From NCBI RefSeq assembly GCF_058153355.1, contig NZ_CM177019.1: DNA of 64,000 nucleotides; one strand, given 5' to 3'. The translations under genes and the position numbers were made by a program. Under the pieces are notes generated by a model, which saw only the letters and a list, made by a program, of their open reading frames with translations, searched no databases and was not told the origin of the DNA. Shown here one piece after another: positions 2,005-61,754 of the stretch. Every line of letters starts with the position of its first letter. The stretch's first letter is position 1.

Positions 2005-3411
2005 TCAGAAGATGGTGAATGGTGCGATTACCATAAATTTCACGTCACGCTCATCCTGGAAGATGTTGCCGTAACCACCGCCCCAGCTTGGGATGTCGGA
2101 GTGGTTGTCGTATTCGGTAAAGTGCAGTTTGAACATCGTGCCTTTGGCGCGACCGTCCTGAATGGTGTAGACCGCATCCAGGCTGTACGCAGACTCTTCA
2201 ATAGTCCGGTTCTTGTCGTAGTATGCATCCGGATTGCTCTGCCAGGTAGCGGGTTTAGCATCCCATGCGTAAACGTAGGAAGCGCCGATGGCGAAGCCTG
2301 GAAGATTCCAGTTTTTCAGGTCATACATCGCACCGAAGAAGACCGCTTTTTCGCCGTTGGCGTTGAAGTCAGAACGGTTATCCCACCAGATATCCAGGCG
2401 ACCGTTCGAGGAAGCATAGGTTGGAGTCATACGTTGCAGGAAGTATCCCTGCTGACCGTCGGCTTTAACCCAGGTGCCTTCCAGACGCAAATCCACTACG
2501 TCAGCCGCCCGGTAACCAAAGGTCAACGCTTGCAGCCAGGCAGTGCCGTCGTAAAGGTCGTTGACGCTGCGATCGTCAACTTTATCGCGCGTACCGTAGA
2601 ACTGGTAGCTGGTGGTTAACGGGCTACCGGCGATATCAAATTTATAGCTGGCTTTGGCAAAATACTGATCAATATACCCTTCCGCCTGACCAAACGCCGC
2701 TTCCAGTACGAAGTTATTTTTGAAGTCGTACTTCGCCCCAAGGGAGTGTAGATAATCAACTTTGGTGGTTTTATCGTTCTGATAAAACTCATCCATTTCC
2801 AGATGCCACGGCGCTTTATATTCGTTGGTCCACATGTAGGAGAAACTCAACGCACCAGCATCGCCGTAATCAAAATTCGCCCCCGCTTCCGCCCCCTGAT
2901 AAGTACCCGGCATAAAGCTCCAGTGCGGCGCTAACAGCGTCTGACCGGTTGGCTGAATATAACCTGCCCGCGCCCACACCGGACCGTATTTAAATTTGGC
3001 CGCTGCTTTATACAGGCTTATACCGCTTTTATCGCCGGACCAGTCTTCGTCATAGGCTTTATTGCTTTTTGAAAACGCGATTTCGTTCGGGTGAGAACTG
3101 TCGCCGTTTTCCGCCATTTCAATCGCCGTAAACGCCGCAATATCAAGGCCGAACATATCAGCAGCATAACCAGACTGAAAATCGAGGTTGGCGTTCCAGG
3201 TGGAATGAGAAAGGTTGGTTTTGTATTTGTCGCCGTCGGTAACGTCTTTACGGTCGCGTTCACGCTGCCAGTAATAGATACCGCCGGTTAAGGTTGAATC
3301 GTCGATGAATCCTTCGGCGCGAGCCTCCGGCATTGCCATAAAGCCCGACATTGCTGTAACACCGGCGATAGCCAGCGCCAGCGTACTACGTTTGCCACTA
3401 AACGTACGCAT
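2005..3411 (-). CDS. chiP: Chitoporin ChiP/YbfM (468 aa), OprD-family outer-membrane porin
   Basis: 468-aa ORF with signal peptide (...AMPEARAEG) and C-terminal beta-barrel signature ending ...IAPFTIF. Confidence 0.93.
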
Positions 3412-3417
3412 GGGTTA

Positions 3418-3430
3418 ATCCTCTTTGACG
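3418..3430 (-). promoter_or_regulatory. ChiX sRNA pairing site overlapping the chiP Shine-Dalgarno
   Basis: chiP mRNA reads GUCAAAGAGGAUUAACCCAUG here; GUCAAAGAGGA is complementary to the ChiX seed UCCUCUUUGAC as I recall it. Confidence 0.55.
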
Positions 3431-3764
3431 TATAAATTGCTGCACCAAAGGTGAACAGCGAAAAAAATAAAAATTAAAAAAGTAGCGTTGAGAAAAGTCT
3501 CGCTGACTACAGGAACAGACTATTTTTCGCGACGCGAATTATCAATCTCTTTCTGTAACCAGAATGTAAGAACATGAGCAACCGCACATATTTTGATGAT
3601 TTTTGTTACAAGGCTTAAGTTTGCAGTTGAAAGGCTTGCAGAAGAATAAAAGCGTGAATTTCCAGCAAGATGAAAACGGTTACATTTTATTTAATTATGG
3701 TTTGTGATTTTAAATTTGTTTTATGGATAAATTGCGAAGCGGAATTAATTCGCGAAGAAAAGCA

Positions 3765-3790
3765 GAAAAAAACGCCGCGGAGCGCGGCGT
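3765..3790 (-). terminator. Rho-independent terminator downstream of glnS
   Basis: Minus strand forms CGCCGCGCUCCGCGGCG hairpin followed by a U-run (plus-strand A-run at 3765-3772). Confidence 0.55.
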
Positions 3791-3812
3791 TTGGGTTTGT
3801 TTGCTATTTCTT

Positions 3813-3848
3813 GCCGGATGCGACGTAAACGCCTCACCCGGCCTGGTA
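3813..3848. repeat. REP (repetitive extragenic palindrome) element
   Basis: GCCGGATGCGACGTAAACGCCTCACCCGGCC resembles the REP consensus. Confidence 0.5.
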
Positions 3849-3858
3849 GAACTTAAAA

Positions 3859-5523
3859 TTACTCGCCTACTTTCGCCCAGGTATCACGCAGCCCAACGGT
3901 GCGGTTAAATACCGGTTTTTCCGCCGTAGAATGGCGGCTGTCGAGGCAGAAATAACCTTCACGCTCAAACTGGAATGCTTTGCCCGCTACCGCGTCTTTC
4001 AGCGACGGTTCAGCAAAGCCCTGTTTGATCACCAGCGATTCCGGGTTAATCACCGACAGGAAATCATCCGCAGCACCTGGGTTCGGCACGCTGAACAGAC
4101 GATCATACAGACGAATTTCTACCGGCAACGCATGTGCCGCGCTCACCCAGTGAATAACACCTTTTACTTTACGACCATCTGCCGGATCTTTGCTTAAGGT
4201 GTCAGCATCATAAGTACAGAAGATAGTGGTGATATTGCCTTCGGCATCTTTCTCCACGCGCTCTGCCTTAATAACGTAAGCATTACGCAGACGCACTTCT
4301 TTACCCAGCACCAGACGCTTGTACTGCTTGTTAGCTTCTTCGCGGAAATCAGCGCGATCGATCCAAATCTCACCGCTGAATGGCACCTGACGGCTGCCCA
4401 TTTCCGGTTTGTTCGGATGGTTCGGCATGGTGACCATTTCGCCTTCGCCCTGATAGTTTTCGATAACCAGTTTCACCGGATCGATAACCGCCATTGCGCG
4501 CGGGGCGTTTTCGTTGAGATCTTCACGAATGCAGGATTCCAGCGACGCCATCTCAATGGTGTTGTCCTGCTTGGTCACGCCAATGCGTTTGCAGAACTCA
4601 CGAATAGAAGCCGCCGTGTAACCACGACGACGCAGACCGGAAATAGTCGGCATACGCGGATCATCCCAGCCTTCAACGTGCTTGTCGGTCACCAGCAGGT
4701 TCAGCTTACGCTTGGACATCACGGTGTATTCCAGATTCAGGCGCGAGAATTCGTACTGGCGCGGGTGAACAGGAATGGTGATGTTGTCCAGTACCCAGTC
4801 GTACAGACGACGGTTGTCCTGGAACTCAAGCGTACACAGAGAGTGCGTAATACCTTCCAGCGCATCGCTGATGCAGTGTGTGAAGTCGTACATCGGGTAG
4901 ATGCACCACTTGTTGCCAGTCTGGTGGTGTTCAGCAAATTTAATGCGGTACAGCACCGGATCGCGCATTACGATAAATGGCGACGCCATGTCGATTTTCG
5001 CACGCAGGCAGGCTTTACCTTCTTCAAAACCGCCGGTACGCATTTTTTCGAACAGCGCCAGGTTCTCTTCAACGCTACGGTCGCGGTACGGGCTGTTTTT
5101 ACCCGGCTGAGTCAGGGTGCCGCGGTATTCGCGGATCTGTTCCGGTGTCAGTTCATCAACGTACGCCAGGCCTTTATTGATCAGTTCGATCGCATAGGCG
5201 TGGAGCTGATCAAAATAATCGGAGGAGTAACGGACGTTACCAGACCAGTGAAAACCTAACCACTCAACGTCGTTTTTGATCGACTCAACATACTCGATAT
5301 CTTCTTTTACCGGGTTAGTGTCGTCGAAACGCAGGTTGCACTGGCCTTTATAGTCCTGGGCGATCCCGAAGTTCAGGCAGATAGATTTCGCATGCCCAAT
5401 ATGCAGATAGCCATTCGGCTCCGGCGGGAAACGGGTGTGTACTGTGGTGTGCTTACCACTGGCCAGATCTTCATCGATGATCTGACGAATAAAGTTAGTC
5501 GGGCGGGCTTCTGCCTCACTCAT
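3859..5523 (-). CDS. glnS: Glutaminyl-tRNA synthetase (554 aa)
   Basis: [24 protein letters not shown]...; class I HIGH motif ([14 protein letters not shown]) and VMSKR (KMSKS-type) motif. Confidence 0.97.
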
Positions 5524-5790: not shown

Positions 5791-7737
5791 TTACTTTTTG
5801 ATTTCATACAGCGGCGTTTGACCCGCCACAACATGACCCTGAGCTTTAATGATAAGGCCGCTGAAATCGTCGATATTGCTGCAAACCACCGGGCTAATCA
5901 TCGAACGGGCGTTAGCGTTCAGGTAATCCAGATCCATTTCCAGAATCGGTTGCCCTGCGCTTACTTGCGCCCCCTCTTCCACCAGACGTTTAAAGCCTTT
6001 GCCTTCCAGCGCTACGGTGTCGATACCCATATGGACGACAATCTCAGCGCCTTTTTCGGTTTCCAGGCAGAACGCGTGATTGGTGTTGAAGATTTTCACG
6101 ATTGTCCCTGCGGCTGGCGATACGACGATTTTATCCGTCGGTTTCACCGCCACACCGTCACCCACCGCTTTGCTGGCAAATGCTTCGTCAGGAACCTGAT
6201 CCAGCGCCACAACATCACCGGTAATCGGCGATACCAGCTCCGCGACAGACACCGCGTTTGGTACAGCCTGCGGTTTTGCTACAGGCGCGGCAGTTACAGG
6301 CGCAGTTTCAGCTGACGCAGCGGCTACCGGACCACGGGCAACAACTTTCTTCATTGCATCGCCAATGGATTCCGCTTTCGCGCCAACAATCACCTGAATA
6401 GTCTGTTTGTTCAGTTTCACTACCCCAGAAGCACCCAGACGTTTACACATCGTATCGTTAACGCGGGCAGAGTCAGCCACGGTCAGACGCAGACGGGTGA
6501 TACAGGCGTCAATCGCTTTCAGGTTGTCAGTACCGCCAACCGCAGCAATATAGTTGGTCGCCAGTTGAGTCAGGCCTTCCTCGGTATTGCTGTTGGCTTC
6601 TTCAGTAACGATCTCGTCTTCTTTATCTTCGCGACCCGGCGTTTTCAGATTGAACATGCGGATAACCACACTGAACACCACGAAGTAGATAGCGAAGAAC
6701 ACAACCCCCATCACCAGCAGCATCCAGACGTTCTGGCTGGCGGCCGGCAGGTTATACATCAACGCGTAGTCGATAGCCCCCGCAGAGAAGGAGAAGCCAG
6801 CATGGATACCCAGCAGCGTTGCCACAAACAGGCTGATACCCGTCAGCAGTGCGTGCAGGAGGTACAGCAGCGGTGCAAGGAACATGAACAGGAATTCCAG
6901 CGGCTCAGTCACACCGGTCAGGAACGCAGTAACAGCAACAGAAAGCAGCATACCGCCAACCATCGGACGACGCTCTTTCGGTGCTGCGAAGTACATCGCC
7001 AGCGCCGCGCCCGGCAGACCGAACATCATAATCGGGAAGAAGCCGGACATGAACATCCCCGCGGTGCCGTCACCGGCATAGAAGCGGTTAATGTCGCCGT
7101 GGAAAACCGTACCCGCCGCGTTGGTGAATTCACCAATCTGGAACCAGGCGATGGTGTTCAGCACCTGATGCAGACCGGTTGGGATCAGCAGACGGTTGAT
7201 GAAACCAAAGATACCGGAACCCAGCGCGCCCGCAGAAACGATCCATTCGCCGCCTGCATGGATAGCGTGCTGTACCGGTGGCCAGACGTAACCAAAAATG
7301 GCCGCCAGCACCAGGCAGAAGAAGCCGGTGGCGATCGGCACAAAACGTTTGCCGCCGAAGAAGCTCAGGAAGTCCGGCAGTTTAATATCGGACCAACGGT
7401 TATAGGCAGCACCACCGACCAGACCGGTAATGATACCCGCCAGTACACCCATGTTAATTTCTGGGTTGATGGTCACCATCGCTTTGGTTAACACAAAGTA
7501 ACCGACCGCACCCGCCAGCGCCGCCGCACCTGCGCTGTCTTTCGACCAGCTGGATGCCACACCGATGGCGAAGATTAATGCGAGGTTATCAAAAATCGCA
7601 CCGCCCGCCTGGGCAATAAACGCAACGTTAAGTAAATCTGGCTGACCGAATCGCAGCAACAGTGCCGCCACCGGCAGCACCGCGATAGGGAGCTGTAACG
7701 CCCTACCGAGTCGCTGGAAAAAACCTAAAATATTCAT
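5791..7737 (-). CDS. nagE: PTS N-acetylglucosamine-specific EIICBA component (648 aa)
   Basis: N-terminal polytopic EIIC domain, central EIIB (...NLKAIDACITRLRLTV...) and C-terminal EIIA domain; divergent from nagB. Confidence 0.95.
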   Translation of the reverse strand: MNILGFFQRLGRALQLPIAVLPVAALLLRFGQPDLLNVAFIAQAGGAIFDNLALIFAIGVASSWSKDSAGAAALAGAVGYFVLTKAMVTINPEINMGVLAGIITGLVGGAAYNRWSDIKLPDFLSFFGGKRFVPIATGFFCLVLAAIFGYVWPPVQHAIHAGGEWIVSAGALGSGIFGFINRLLIPTGLHQVLNTIAWFQIGEFTNAAGTVFHGDINRFYAGDGTAGMFMSGFFPIMMFGLPGAALAMYFAAPKERRPMVGGMLLSVAVTAFLTGVTEPLEFLFMFLAPLLYLLHALLTGISLFVATLLGIHAGFSFSAGAIDYALMYNLPAASQNVWMLLVMGVVFFAIYFVVFSVVIRMFNLKTPGREDKEDEIVTEEANSNTEEGLTQLATNYIAAVGGTDNLKAIDACITRLRLTVADSARVNDTMCKRLGASGVVKLNKQTIQVIVGAKAESIGDAMKKVVARGPVAAASAETAPVTAAPVAKPQAVPNAVSVAELVSPITGDVVALDQVPDEAFASKAVGDGVAVKPTDKIVVSPAAGTIVKIFNTNHAFCLETEKGAEIVVHMGIDTVALEGKGFKRLVEEGAQVSAGQPILEMDLDYLNANARSMISPVVCSNIDDFSGLIIKAQGHVVAGQTPLYEIKK

Positions 7738-7856: not shown

Positions 7857-7885
7857 AAAATTTAATTCGTATCGCAAATTAAACG
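7857..7885. promoter_or_regulatory. Putative NagC operator, nagE-proximal
   Basis: AT-rich dyad AAATTTAATTCGTATCGCAAATTAAACG in the nagE-nagB divergent control region; about 94 bp from the second candidate, consistent with the known two-operator loop. Confidence 0.45.
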
Positions 7886-7953: not shown

Positions 7954-7979
7954 ACTTATTTTATCATTCAAAAAATCAG
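7954..7979. promoter_or_regulatory. Putative NagC operator, nagB-proximal
   Basis: CTTATTTTATCATTCAAAAAATCAGG, AT-rich dyad at the expected spacing from the nagE-proximal site. Confidence 0.4.
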
Positions 7980-15827: not shown

Positions 15828-15904
15828 GGCTACGTAGCTCAGTTGGTTAGAGCACATCACTCATAATGATGGGGTCACAGGTTCGAATCCCGTCGTAGCC
15901 ACCA
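15828..15904 (+). tRNA. metT: tRNA-Met (elongator, anticodon CAU)
   Basis: GGCTACGTAGCTCAGTTGGTTAGAGCACATCACTCATAATGATGGGG...GTAGCCACCA; CAT in anticodon loop, CCA end. Confidence 0.95.
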
Positions 15905-15912
15905 TCTTTTTT

Positions 15913-15997
15913 GCGGGAGTGGCGAAATTGGTAGACGCACCAGATTTAGGTTCTGGCGCCGCAAGGTGTGCGAGTTCAAGTCTCGCCTCCCGCACCA
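15913..15997 (+). tRNA. leuW: tRNA-Leu (anticodon UAG)
   Basis: GCGGGAGTGGCGAAATTGGTAGACGCACCAGATTTAGGTTCTGG...CCCGCACCA; long variable arm. Confidence 0.95.
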
Positions 15998-16020
15998 TTC
16001 ACCAGAAAGCGTTGTACGGA

Positions 16021-16095
16021 TGGGGTATCGCCAAGCGGTAAGGCACCGGTTTTTGATACCGGCATTCCCTGGTTCGAATCCAGGTACCCCAGCCA
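16021..16095 (+). tRNA. glnU: tRNA-Gln (anticodon UUG)
   Basis: TGGGGTATCGCCAAGCGGTAAGGCACCGGTTTTTGATACCGG...CCCCAGCCA. Confidence 0.95.
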
Positions 16096-16129
16096 TCTTC
16101 TTCGAATAAGCGGTTCACCGCCCGGTTAT

Positions 16130-16204
16130 TGGGGTATCGCCAAGCGGTAAGGCACCGGTTTTTGATACCGGCATTCCCTGGTTCGAATCCAGGTACCCCA
16201 GCCA
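16130..16204 (+). tRNA. glnW: tRNA-Gln (anticodon UUG), second copy
   Basis: Identical to the preceding tRNA-Gln(UUG). Confidence 0.95.
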
Positions 16205-16219
16205 TCGAAGAAACAATCT

Positions 16220-16296
16220 GGCTACGTAGCTCAGTTGGTTAGAGCACATCACTCATAATGATGGGGTCACAGGTTCGAATCCCGTCGTAGCCACCA
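16220..16296 (+). tRNA. metU: tRNA-Met (elongator, anticodon CAU), second copy
   Basis: Identical to the copy at 15828-15904. Confidence 0.95.
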
Positions 16297-16344
16297 AATT
16301 CTGAATGTGTCGAATGCGTTCGGCAAATTCACAAACCAATTTGT

Positions 16345-16419
16345 TGGGGTATCGCCAAGCGGTAAGGCACCGGATTCTGATTCCGGCATTCCGAGGTTCG
16401 AATCCTCGTACCCCAGCCA
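16345..16419 (+). tRNA. glnV: tRNA-Gln (anticodon CUG)
   Basis: TGGGGTATCGCCAAGCGGTAAGGCACCGGATTCTGATTCCGG...; anticodon is wild-type CUG, not the CUA of supE. Confidence 0.95.
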
Positions 16420-16456
16420 ATTTATTCAAGACGCTTATATTGTAAGTGCACCCAGT

Positions 16457-16531
16457 TGGGGTATCGCCAAGCGGTAAGGCACCGGATTCTGATTCCGGCA
16501 TTCCGAGGTTCGAATCCTCGTACCCCAGCCA
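16457..16531 (+). tRNA. glnX: tRNA-Gln (anticodon CUG), second copy
   Basis: Identical to the copy at 16345-16419. Confidence 0.95.
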
Positions 16532-26081: not shown

Positions 26082-26990
26082 ATGCAATTACGTAAACCTG
26101 CCACAGCAATCCTGGCCCTGGCGCTTTCCGCAGGACTGGCACAGGCAGATGACGCCGCCCCGGCAGCAGGCAGTACGCTGGACAAAATCGCCAAAAACGG
26201 TGTGATTGTCGTCGGTCACCGTGAATCTTCAGTACCTTTCTCTTATTACGACAATCAGCAAAAAGTGGTGGGTTACTCGCAGGATTACTCCAACGCCATT
26301 GTTGAAGCAGTGAAAAAGAAACTCAACAAACCGGACTTGCAGGTGAAATTGATTCCGATCACCTCACAAAACCGTATTCCGCTGCTGCAAAACGGCACTT
26401 TCGATTTTGAATGTGGTTCTACCACCAACAACGTCGAACGCCAGAAACAGGCGGCTTTCTCCGACACTATTTTCGTGGTCGGTACGCGCCTGCTGACAAA
26501 AAAAGGCGGCGATATTAAAGATTTTGCCGATCTGAAAGACAAAGCCGTCGTAGTCACTTCCGGCACCACCTCTGAAGTTTTGCTCAACAAACTGAATGAA
26601 GAGCAAAAAATGAACATGCGCATCATCAGCGCCAAAGATCACGGTGACTCTTTCCGCACCCTGGAAAGCGGTCGTGCCGTTGCCTTTATGATGGATGACG
26701 CTCTGTTAGCCGGTGAGCGAGCGAAAGCGAAGAAACCAGACAACTGGGAAATCGTCGGCAAGCCGCAGTCTCAGGAAGCCTACGGTTGCATGTTGCGTAA
26801 AGACGATCCGCAGTTCAAAAAGCTGATGGATGACACTATCGCTCAGGTGCAGACCTCCGGTGAAGCGGAAAAATGGTTTGATAAGTGGTTCAAAAATCCA
26901 ATTCCGCCGAAAAACCTGAACATGAATTTCGAACTGTCGGACGAAATGAAAGCACTGTTCAAAGAACCGAATGACAAGGCACTGAACTAA
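26082..26990 (+). CDS. gltI: Glutamate/aspartate periplasmic binding protein GltI (302 aa)
   Basis: ATG at 26082 after AAGGAG gives MQLRKPATAILALALSAGLAQA signal peptide; correct length. Confidence 0.95.
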   Translation: MQLRKPATAILALALSAGLAQADDAAPAAGSTLDKIAKNGVIVVGHRESSVPFSYYDNQQKVVGYSQDYSNAIVEAVKKKLNKPDLQVKLIPITSQNRIPLLQNGTFDFECGSTTNNVERQKQAAFSDTIFVVGTRLLTKKGGDIKDFADLKDKAVVVTSGTTSEVLLNKLNEEQKMNMRIISAKDHGDSFRTLESGRAVAFMMDDALLAGERAKAKKPDNWEIVGKPQSQEAYGCMLRKDDPQFKKLMDDTIAQVQTSGEAEKWFDKWFKNPIPPKNLNMNFELSDEMKALFKEPNDKALN

Positions 26991-27146
26991 TTACAAGAAC
27001 CAGGGGCGGAAATTCCAGCCCTCTCGATTGTTACGTAGCACGGACAGACTATACGCCTGATGGTCGTTCCCCATCGGGCCTGAAAACCGCAATACGCTGG
27101 GTAACAATCTTCGAGGGTAGCAGTTAACGCTGCTACCCTTTTTTTT
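26991..27146 (+). ncRNA. sroC: SroC sRNA region (processed from the gltI-gltJ intergenic part of the gltIJKL mRNA)
   Basis: Location only: intergenic segment ending at the intrinsic terminator; SroC is known to derive from this position; sequence identity not verified from memory. Confidence 0.45.
27115..27146 (+). terminator. Intra-operon rho-independent terminator between gltI and gltJ
   Basis: GGGTAGCAGTTAACGCTGCTACCC hairpin followed by TTTTTTTT. Confidence 0.7.
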
Positions 27147-27159
27147 CTGGAGTAGATTT

Positions 27160-56337: not shown

Positions 56338-56367
56338 AAAAAAAACCCGCTGATTAAGCGGGTTTTG
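56338..56367. terminator. Bidirectional terminator between crcB and cspE
   Basis: AAAAAAACCCGCTGATTAAGCGGGTTTTGAATT. Confidence 0.7.
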
Positions 56368-56385
56368 AATTCTTGCTGACGTATC

Positions 56386-56595
56386 TTACAGAGCGATTAC
56401 GTTTGCAGCAGAAGGGCCTTTGGCACCGTTAGTGATTTCGAACTCTACGCGCTGACCTTCAGCAAGAGTTTTAAAACCATTAGTCTGGATTGCAGAGAAG
56501 TGTACGAACACGTCTTTGCTGCCGTCTTCCGGAGTAATGAAACCGAATCCTTTGGACTCATTAAACCACTTAACGTTACCTTTAATCTTAGACAT
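56386..56595 (-). CDS. cspE: Cold-shock-domain protein CspE (69 aa)
   Basis: [37 protein letters not shown]... (RNP1/RNP2 motifs). Confidence 0.95.
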
Positions 56596-56769
56596 CAAAA
56601 TTACCTTTACATGAAAAATAGACACAAATGCTGTGTCGGTTACCAGTACACCAATTGTGGTACGCTTTGTCCAGTGCAACTTTACTAAAAAGTGATAAAA
56701 GTCGCGTTATTTTTGATGTTAATTATTTTACTCATTGATTTTAAAGAAGTTACTAAAATTTCATTTGTC

Positions 56770-61653: not shown

Positions 61654-61754
61654 TGTTTTCCTTGCGGGTTGTCCCGAGCCTCTTTGACGGATGTAATTAA
61701 AATGTTGAATCAAAATACATAGATATTAAATATAATCGTGGCAAATTTTATTCA

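Follow-up and report, generated by a model that had tools for sequence, protein, structure and literature searches.

What controls chiP, and where do the controlling elements lie in the DNA that separates it from glnS? The window, the 64,000-nucleotide stretch analyzed here, carries every element of the chiP regulatory region on its minus strand (Table 1). The original prediction read the DNA between the glnS terminator and the chiP start as one long mRNA leader with two control elements: a pairing site for the seed of the small RNA ChiX (synonyms MicM, RybC and SroB; Rfam RF00368) immediately 5' of the AUG, and an imperfect dyad at about 3733-3758 that might bind NagC. ChiX and chiP are a textbook case of constitutive silencing by an sRNA; decoy RNAs (the chbBC spacer and ChiZ) lift this silencing, which is also tied to Rho-dependent polarity. 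The interval is very likely the chiP regulatory region, with NagC acting at the promoter and ChiX at the leader. The finding is a correct re-identification of a well-characterized, already known system and contains no new biology. For annotation, it fixes the positions of the ChiX site, the promoter, the 99-nt leader (ChiZ) and the actual NagC operator, and it puts right two errors, the supposed long leader and the misplaced NagC operator.

The placement of chiP downstream of glnS is borne out by the annotation of matching genomes. Of 5,426 complete E. coli genomes, 5,424 match the 601-nt segment that surrounds the interval, and they annotate its flanking genes as "glnS: glutamine--tRNA ligase" and "chiP: chitoporin ChiP"; the closest of these genomes is 98.8% identical. 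GTDB representatives with identical ChiP segments, E. whittamii among them, share only 92-94% of the DNA sequence, which places the window in E. coli or a very close relative. A terminator scan and a perfect inverted repeat both mark the glnS terminator, and its stem is kept in the alignment across Enterobacteriaceae. From the end of its T-run (~3764) to the AUG is ~352 bp, so the spacing of ~350 bp in the original prediction is real. A REP-like palindrome, GCCGGATGCGACGTAAACGCCTCACCCGGCC, lies between the glnS stop codon and the terminator (3800-3858). This element is unconserved outside Escherichia, and its glnS-proximal part differs from MG1655.

Table 1. Positions of the chiP regulatory elements and of other features in the window.
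Feature	Position	Strand	Sequence	Details and basis
chiP CDS	3411..2005	minus		468 aa, ATG 3411..3409; ORF list and RefSeq name 'chiP: chitoporin ChiP'
ChiX pairing site	3430..3419	minus	CGUCAAAGAGGA	complementary to ChiX nt 45-56; includes Shine-Dalgarno AGAGGA 3424..3419
chiP 5' UTR (ChiZ sRNA region)	3510..3412	minus		99 nt; orthology to MG1655 chiZ b4808
U/A-rich tract	3481..3461	minus	UUUUUUAAUUUUUAUUUUUUU	predicted unpaired; candidate Hfq rim-binding site
Putative sigma-70 promoter	3545..3517	minus		-35 TTGATA 3545..3540, 17-bp spacer, -10 TAGTCT 3522..3517
Proximal NagC operator	3543..3521	minus	GATAATTCGCGTCGCGAAAAATA	-33..-11 relative to TSS; exact match to published site
Conserved block	3612..3572	minus	TTGTAACAAAAATCATCAAAATATGTGCGGTTGCTCATG	conservation 8-9 out of 9 across 79 species; CRP-like half-sites at ~-92.5 and ~-70.5
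Conserved block	3686..3669	minus	AATGTAACCGTTTTCATC	CRP-like TGTAA-N6-TCATC by our own reading; conservation profile and alignment
Candidate distal NagC operator	3766..3744	minus	TCTGCTTTTCTTCGCGAATTAAT	TT-N9-AA; center ~-245 from TSS, 223 bp from proximal operator
glnS intrinsic terminator	3792..3764	minus		hairpin 3792..3770, 10-bp G+C stem, 3-nt loop, then T-run
glnS	5523..3859	minus		ORF list
nagE	7737..5791	minus		ORF list
Two nagE-nagB NagC operators	7861-7883 and 7955-7977			matrix matches, below chiP proximal site
Cluster of seven tRNA genes	15828-16528			Rfam matches
sroC	26986-27148	plus		Rfam gathering-threshold match
cspA-type thermoregulator leader	56338-56751	minus		Rfam match; probably leader of a cspA-family cold-shock gene
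Second ChiX complement	61690..61679	minus	CCGUCAAAGAGG	perfect 12-nt match to ChiX nt 46-57, -22.0 kcal/mol

The ChiX pairing site at the chiP Shine-Dalgarno

A ChiX sequence was used as the query for complementarity to the glnS-chiP region. The query was verified by 100% identity to the DNA between ybaK and ybaP in E. coli genomes and by a score of 82.1 bits against the Rfam sroB model RF00368 (gathering score 44). Within the region, no Watson-Crick match to ChiX is longer than the 12-mer CGTCAAAGAGGA at 3430..3419, in which 12 of 12 positions pair with ChiX nt 45-56; the 11-mer of the original prediction, GUCAAAGAGGA, occupies 3429..3419. Seven nucleotides (UUAACCC) separate the end of the site from the chiP ATG. 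The ChiX segment complementary to the Shine-Dalgarno is the single-stranded seed UCCUCUUUGACG, and the pairing is contiguous. Sliding windows against the single-stranded ChiX linker give the ChiX-chiP duplex an energy of -21.0 kcal/mol, compared with -12.5 kcal/mol for the next best intergenic site. Opening the two partners costs little (2.5 kcal/mol on the mRNA side, 0.9 kcal/mol for ChiX), which leaves a net energy of about -17.6 kcal/mol; predicted accessibility of the chiP site is only moderate, at a mean unpaired probability of 0.39. Among 500 dinucleotide-shuffled leaders, none reaches -21.0 kcal/mol (mean -10.6, sd 2.3), and no exact 12-mer ChiX complement is expected by chance in the 64-kb window. 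A strong duplex is thus predicted exactly where the original prediction had placed seed complementarity. RNAduplex applied to the whole 507-nt region and full-length ChiX returned a meaningless 130-nt "duplex" and was replaced by the linker windows and opening energies.

The ChiX site is nearly invariant across the 79 species in the alignment. The 11-mer GTCAAAGAGGA is retained in 74 of 80 enterobacterial chiP loci from different species, and neighboring positions of the leader vary. According to Adams et al. 2021 (PMC7815308), the ChiX-chiP pairing is documented by compensatory mutations.

A search of the 64-kb window returned no Rfam match to the ChiX gene (sroB). In E. coli this gene lies ~200 kb from the chiP locus. 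It is carried by 5,422 of 5,426 complete E. coli genomes, and from this near-universal presence we infer that the source genome has it too.

The window contains a second perfect ChiX complement, a one-mismatch copy of the chiP site. It precedes, by 26-38 nt, the ATG (61652) of an ORF beginning MLQLNENKQFAFF. This ORF is dpiB/citA, and dpiBA was reportedly identified as a ChiX/RybC target by Mandin and Gottesman in 2009. The window would then carry both known ChiX targets, chiP and dpiB. Like the chiP leader, the dpiB (citA) leader offers the same ChiX seed a 12-bp perfect duplex; it differs from chiP in that the Shine-Dalgarno is not covered.

The chiP promoter, leader and proximal NagC operator

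The position of the chiP 5' end distinguishes a long leader from a short one. In the RefSeq record of MG1655, "small regulatory RNA ChiZ" (b4808) occupies 708236..708333 and runs directly up to the chiP CDS, which begins at 708334. From promoter to CDS, the window and MG1655 differ by a single T, which the window has in addition in the leader U-run (~3466-3470). Because the window aligns with MG1655 chiZ apart from this T, the chiP leader corresponds to 3510..3412 and is 99 nt long, versus 98 nt in MG1655. The cloning primers in PMC7815308 begin GTAGTCAGCGAGAC / TAGTCAGCG, corresponding to window positions 3510/3509, and the Term-seq 3' end reported there (708334) is the A of the chiP start codon. 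The same paper shows that ChiZ, a ~90-nt RNA, is a product of Rho-dependent termination, builds up in the absence of chiX and acts as a sponge for ChiX. The defining features of ChiZ, an RNA running from the chiP 5' end to a 3' end at the start codon with the ChiX site inside, are assigned to the window by homology to MG1655. In Salmonella, the chiP 5' UTR spans +1..+89 within a regulatory region of -253..+89 (PMC4052769). The aligned Salmonella position would give a leader of ~95 nt versus +89 in Salmonella numbering, and the chiP transcription start site (TSS) therefore carries an uncertainty of a few nucleotides. The "long leader" of ~350 nt is accordingly replaced by one of 99 nt, and the remainder of the interval is promoter and upstream regulatory DNA. 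A gathering-threshold search of 3412-3860 returned no Rfam match, ChiZ included.

ChiX belongs to the Class II sRNAs, and its targets make contact with the rim of Hfq (bioRxiv 10.1101/2021.08.13.456236). The U/A-rich tract in the leader is a candidate for the Hfq rim contact of the chiP mRNA.

Relative to the 5' end at 3510, the TTGATA and TAGTCT hexamers, spaced by 17 bp, read as the putative chiP promoter. Only 3 of the 6 bases in the -10 hexamer are those of the consensus, and a consensus promoter scan did not call TTGATA-17-TAGTCT. The sole match of that scan, at 3713..3684, was set aside because matches were no more numerous than in shuffled sequence.

NagC operators of the nag regulon (nagE-nagB, chbB, glmU, manX, fimB and galP) are 23-bp TT-N9-AA elements that are usually paired and act through DNA looping. 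The operator overlapping the putative chiP promoter is a listed member of this set: Tables 1-2 of the FITBAR paper (PMC3098098) give it as the NagC site 'ybfM proximal' / chiP, upstream of chiP at MG1655 707425, and the published sequence is identical to 3543..3521 at 23 of 23 positions. A symmetrized matrix was built from the other nine sites listed in PMC3098098, with the chiP site left out. The operator scores 22.7 bits with this leave-one-out matrix, ranking first of the 64,000 positions, and the two nagE-nagB operators of the window score alongside but below it. Across 79 species, it has 0-2 mismatches and the surrounding block 3552..3517 is nearly invariant. Repression of chiP by NagC is stated in PMC4098024 and bioRxiv 10.64898/2026.05.02.722398.

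A distal NagC-like box and conserved upstream DNA

The string that the original prediction read as an imperfect dyad, AAATTGCGAAGCGGAATTAATTCGCGAAG, is present on the plus strand at 3729-3757. A repeat search finds in it only the direct repeat TAAATTGCGAAG / TAATTCGCGAAG, and 3700-3800 holds no inverted repeat besides the glnS terminator; by eye, the palindromic part is confined to the 10-bp core GAATTAATTC. The dyad is thus a direct repeat. Its TT-N9-AA register, 3749..3727, scores -9.0 bits on the NagC matrix, and 2,296 positions of the window score as well. The right (promoter-proximal) half of the element is unconserved in the alignment. Its promoter-distal end, TTCGCGAATTAAT, is the strongly conserved half of the NagC-like box at 3766..3744. 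The NagC assignment thus fails in its own register and against the published operator, and it survives in the overlap with this box, which makes an upstream NagC operator near the predicted position plausible. Set against the mapped start and the NagC data, the original prediction loses both the long leader, to the 5' end at 3510, and the dyad, to the published operator.

The box is probably the distal NagC operator of chiP, a candidate that rests on conservation and matrix scores. Most of the 79 species keep its right half, GCGAATTAAT, together with the TT at 3761/3760. In most genera, the box reads (A/T)TTCGCG-N-GCGAATTAAT, with nearly the same core as the proximal operator, and the orthologues in Klebsiella, Kluyvera, Kosakonia and Salmonella are good sites on the NagC matrix. 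The Escherichia box departs from the nag-regulon operators in its degenerate left half, and 31 positions of the window reach its score of 7.06 bits. Orthologous boxes elsewhere score 13-17 bits, and only the three true NagC operators of the window reach that range or exceed it. By naming its site 'ybfM proximal', PMC3098098 implies that by 2010 a distal one was known as well. The pairing resembles that of the nag regulon in that chiP likewise has a second box upstream, ~21 helical turns away, and looping between the two is putative. Center-to-center distances across genera cluster near 212, 223, 235 and 245 bp, with 223 bp here. Helical phasing of the spacing is a hint, as a Rayleigh test leaves periods from 10.5 to 12 indistinguishable and the species do not count as independent observations.

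Two further blocks, conserved across ~79 enterobacterial species, lie between the operators. Together they hold TGTAAC and CRP-like TGTnn-N6-TCATn motifs, centered near -70.5, -92.5 and -166.5. The blocks may bind an activator hitherto unassigned to chiP. Together with the distal box, they could guide dissection of the promoter.

Probable two-layer control of chiP and competing readings

The elements fit a model in which chiP is controlled at two layers. A weak sigma-70 promoter would fire at 3510, and without chitosugars NagC bound to the proximal operator would occlude it. NagC would probably also occupy the weaker operator by the glnS terminator, with the DNA between the two looped. GlcNAc-6-P derived from chitosugars would free the promoter of NagC. 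On transcripts that escape repression, constitutive, Hfq-dependent ChiX would pair through nt 45-56 over the Shine-Dalgarno and block 30S binding, and the untranslated chiP mRNA would undergo Rho-dependent termination and decay. A Rho-dependent region is reported ~290 nt into chiP, which corresponds to ~3121 in the window. A leader terminated at the start codon would be released as ~90-100-nt ChiZ and sponge ChiX. With chitosugars present, the chbBC decoy and ChiZ would titrate ChiX, as described in PMC4098024 and PMC7815308. The sequence features, energetics, conservation and MG1655 orthology behind this model were observed here; in vivo repression, NagC binding and the parts played by Rho and Hfq come from the literature.

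The ChiX match might be fortuitous and without regulatory function, a purine-rich Shine-Dalgarno meeting pyrimidine-rich sequence in an sRNA. The AGAGGA half is the ribosome-binding site, which would be conserved in any case, and a one-mismatch copy occurs elsewhere in the window; but the non-Shine-Dalgarno half, CGUCAA, is equally conserved and the duplex energy is beyond the reach of shuffled leaders. The other copy falls in the dpiB leader, the leader of a second ChiX target. With the compensatory-mutation proof reported in PMC7815308, coincidence is effectively refuted and its probability is negligible. It is also highly improbable, if less so, that the whole ~350 nt is transcribed as leader from a promoter just after the glnS terminator with 3729-3757 as its NagC operator. 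The distance from terminator to AUG is real, a NagC-like half-site is present there and the scan's only promoter-like match, 3713..3684, falls in this stretch, though at a count equal to that in shuffles. Against such a transcript stand a 5' end that mapping and annotation both place at 3510, the published operator at 3543..3521, the absence of any Rfam match in the interval, and the direct repeat with its score of -9 bits in place of a dyad. Moreover, upstream conservation is confined to short blocks parted by unconserved DNA with indels, a pattern typical of protein-binding sites and unlike structured RNA. The 99-nt leader with ChiX at its Shine-Dalgarno and NagC at the promoter is the preferred reading.

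The identity of the distal box is less secure, and there is perhaps one chance in a few that it is the site of another regulator or the conserved 3' flank of the glnS terminator. Such an identity would suit the degenerate left half and 7-bit score in Escherichia, as well as the Enterobacter cloacae complex and Lelliottia, which have the proximal operator without the box. It fits poorly with the ATTCGCG-N-GCGAATTAAT of most genera, whose 13-17 bits are matched in the window by true NagC operators only, and with the known distal site that the 'ybfM proximal' label in PMC3098098 implies. The spacing clusters near 212, 223, 235 and 245 bp also fit helical phasing of two NagC operators, with weak statistics. 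A distal NagC operator thus remains the favored assignment. If it is correct, the operator is strong in most Enterobacteriaceae, decayed in Escherichia and missing from the Enterobacter cloacae complex, which would point to lineage-specific tuning of loop-dependent repression of chiP.

It is conceivable, if rather unlikely, that the upstream 250 bp hold undescribed regulation, comprising the decayed distal operator, the two blocks binding an activator and a change in the ChiX site of Kosakonia. Much of such upstream regulation may already be covered in Plumbridge et al. 2014. Five loci from Kosakonia and a related MAG carry the ChiX site as GUCCAGAAGGA or GUCUAGAAGGA, ~19 nt 5' of the chiP ATG and with three changes. 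With an E. coli-type ChiX, the Kosakonia-type site gives only -13 to -14 kcal/mol. These substitutions could mean either a co-evolved ChiX seed or lost ChiX control. A Kosakonia ChiX seed reading UCCUUCUGGAC would be the natural compensatory change, and an unchanged seed would predict weak control by ChiX. In a search of metagenome contigs for the compensatory seed GAAATTCCTTYTGGACG, none of the best-aligning matches listed was ChiX-like (best local score 19 of a possible 84).

The closest known system is the E. coli K-12 chiP (ybfM) 5' UTR with ChiZ, which has the same glnS-chiP locus, 12-nt ChiX site, Shine-Dalgarno and start codon. The window shows no functional difference from it; in sequence it differs in the extra T of the U-tract and in the glnS-proximal REP region. 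Other lineages vary in the arrangement of the operators. In eight loci from the Enterobacter cloacae complex, Lelliottia and a Leclercia MAG, the distal GCGAATTAAT box is absent, and the proximal operator and ChiX site are kept. The distance from the proximal NagC operator to the chiP ATG is ~240 nt rather than ~120 nt in six loci from the Citrobacter freundii group and its relatives, which implies that ~120 bp are inserted within their leaders.
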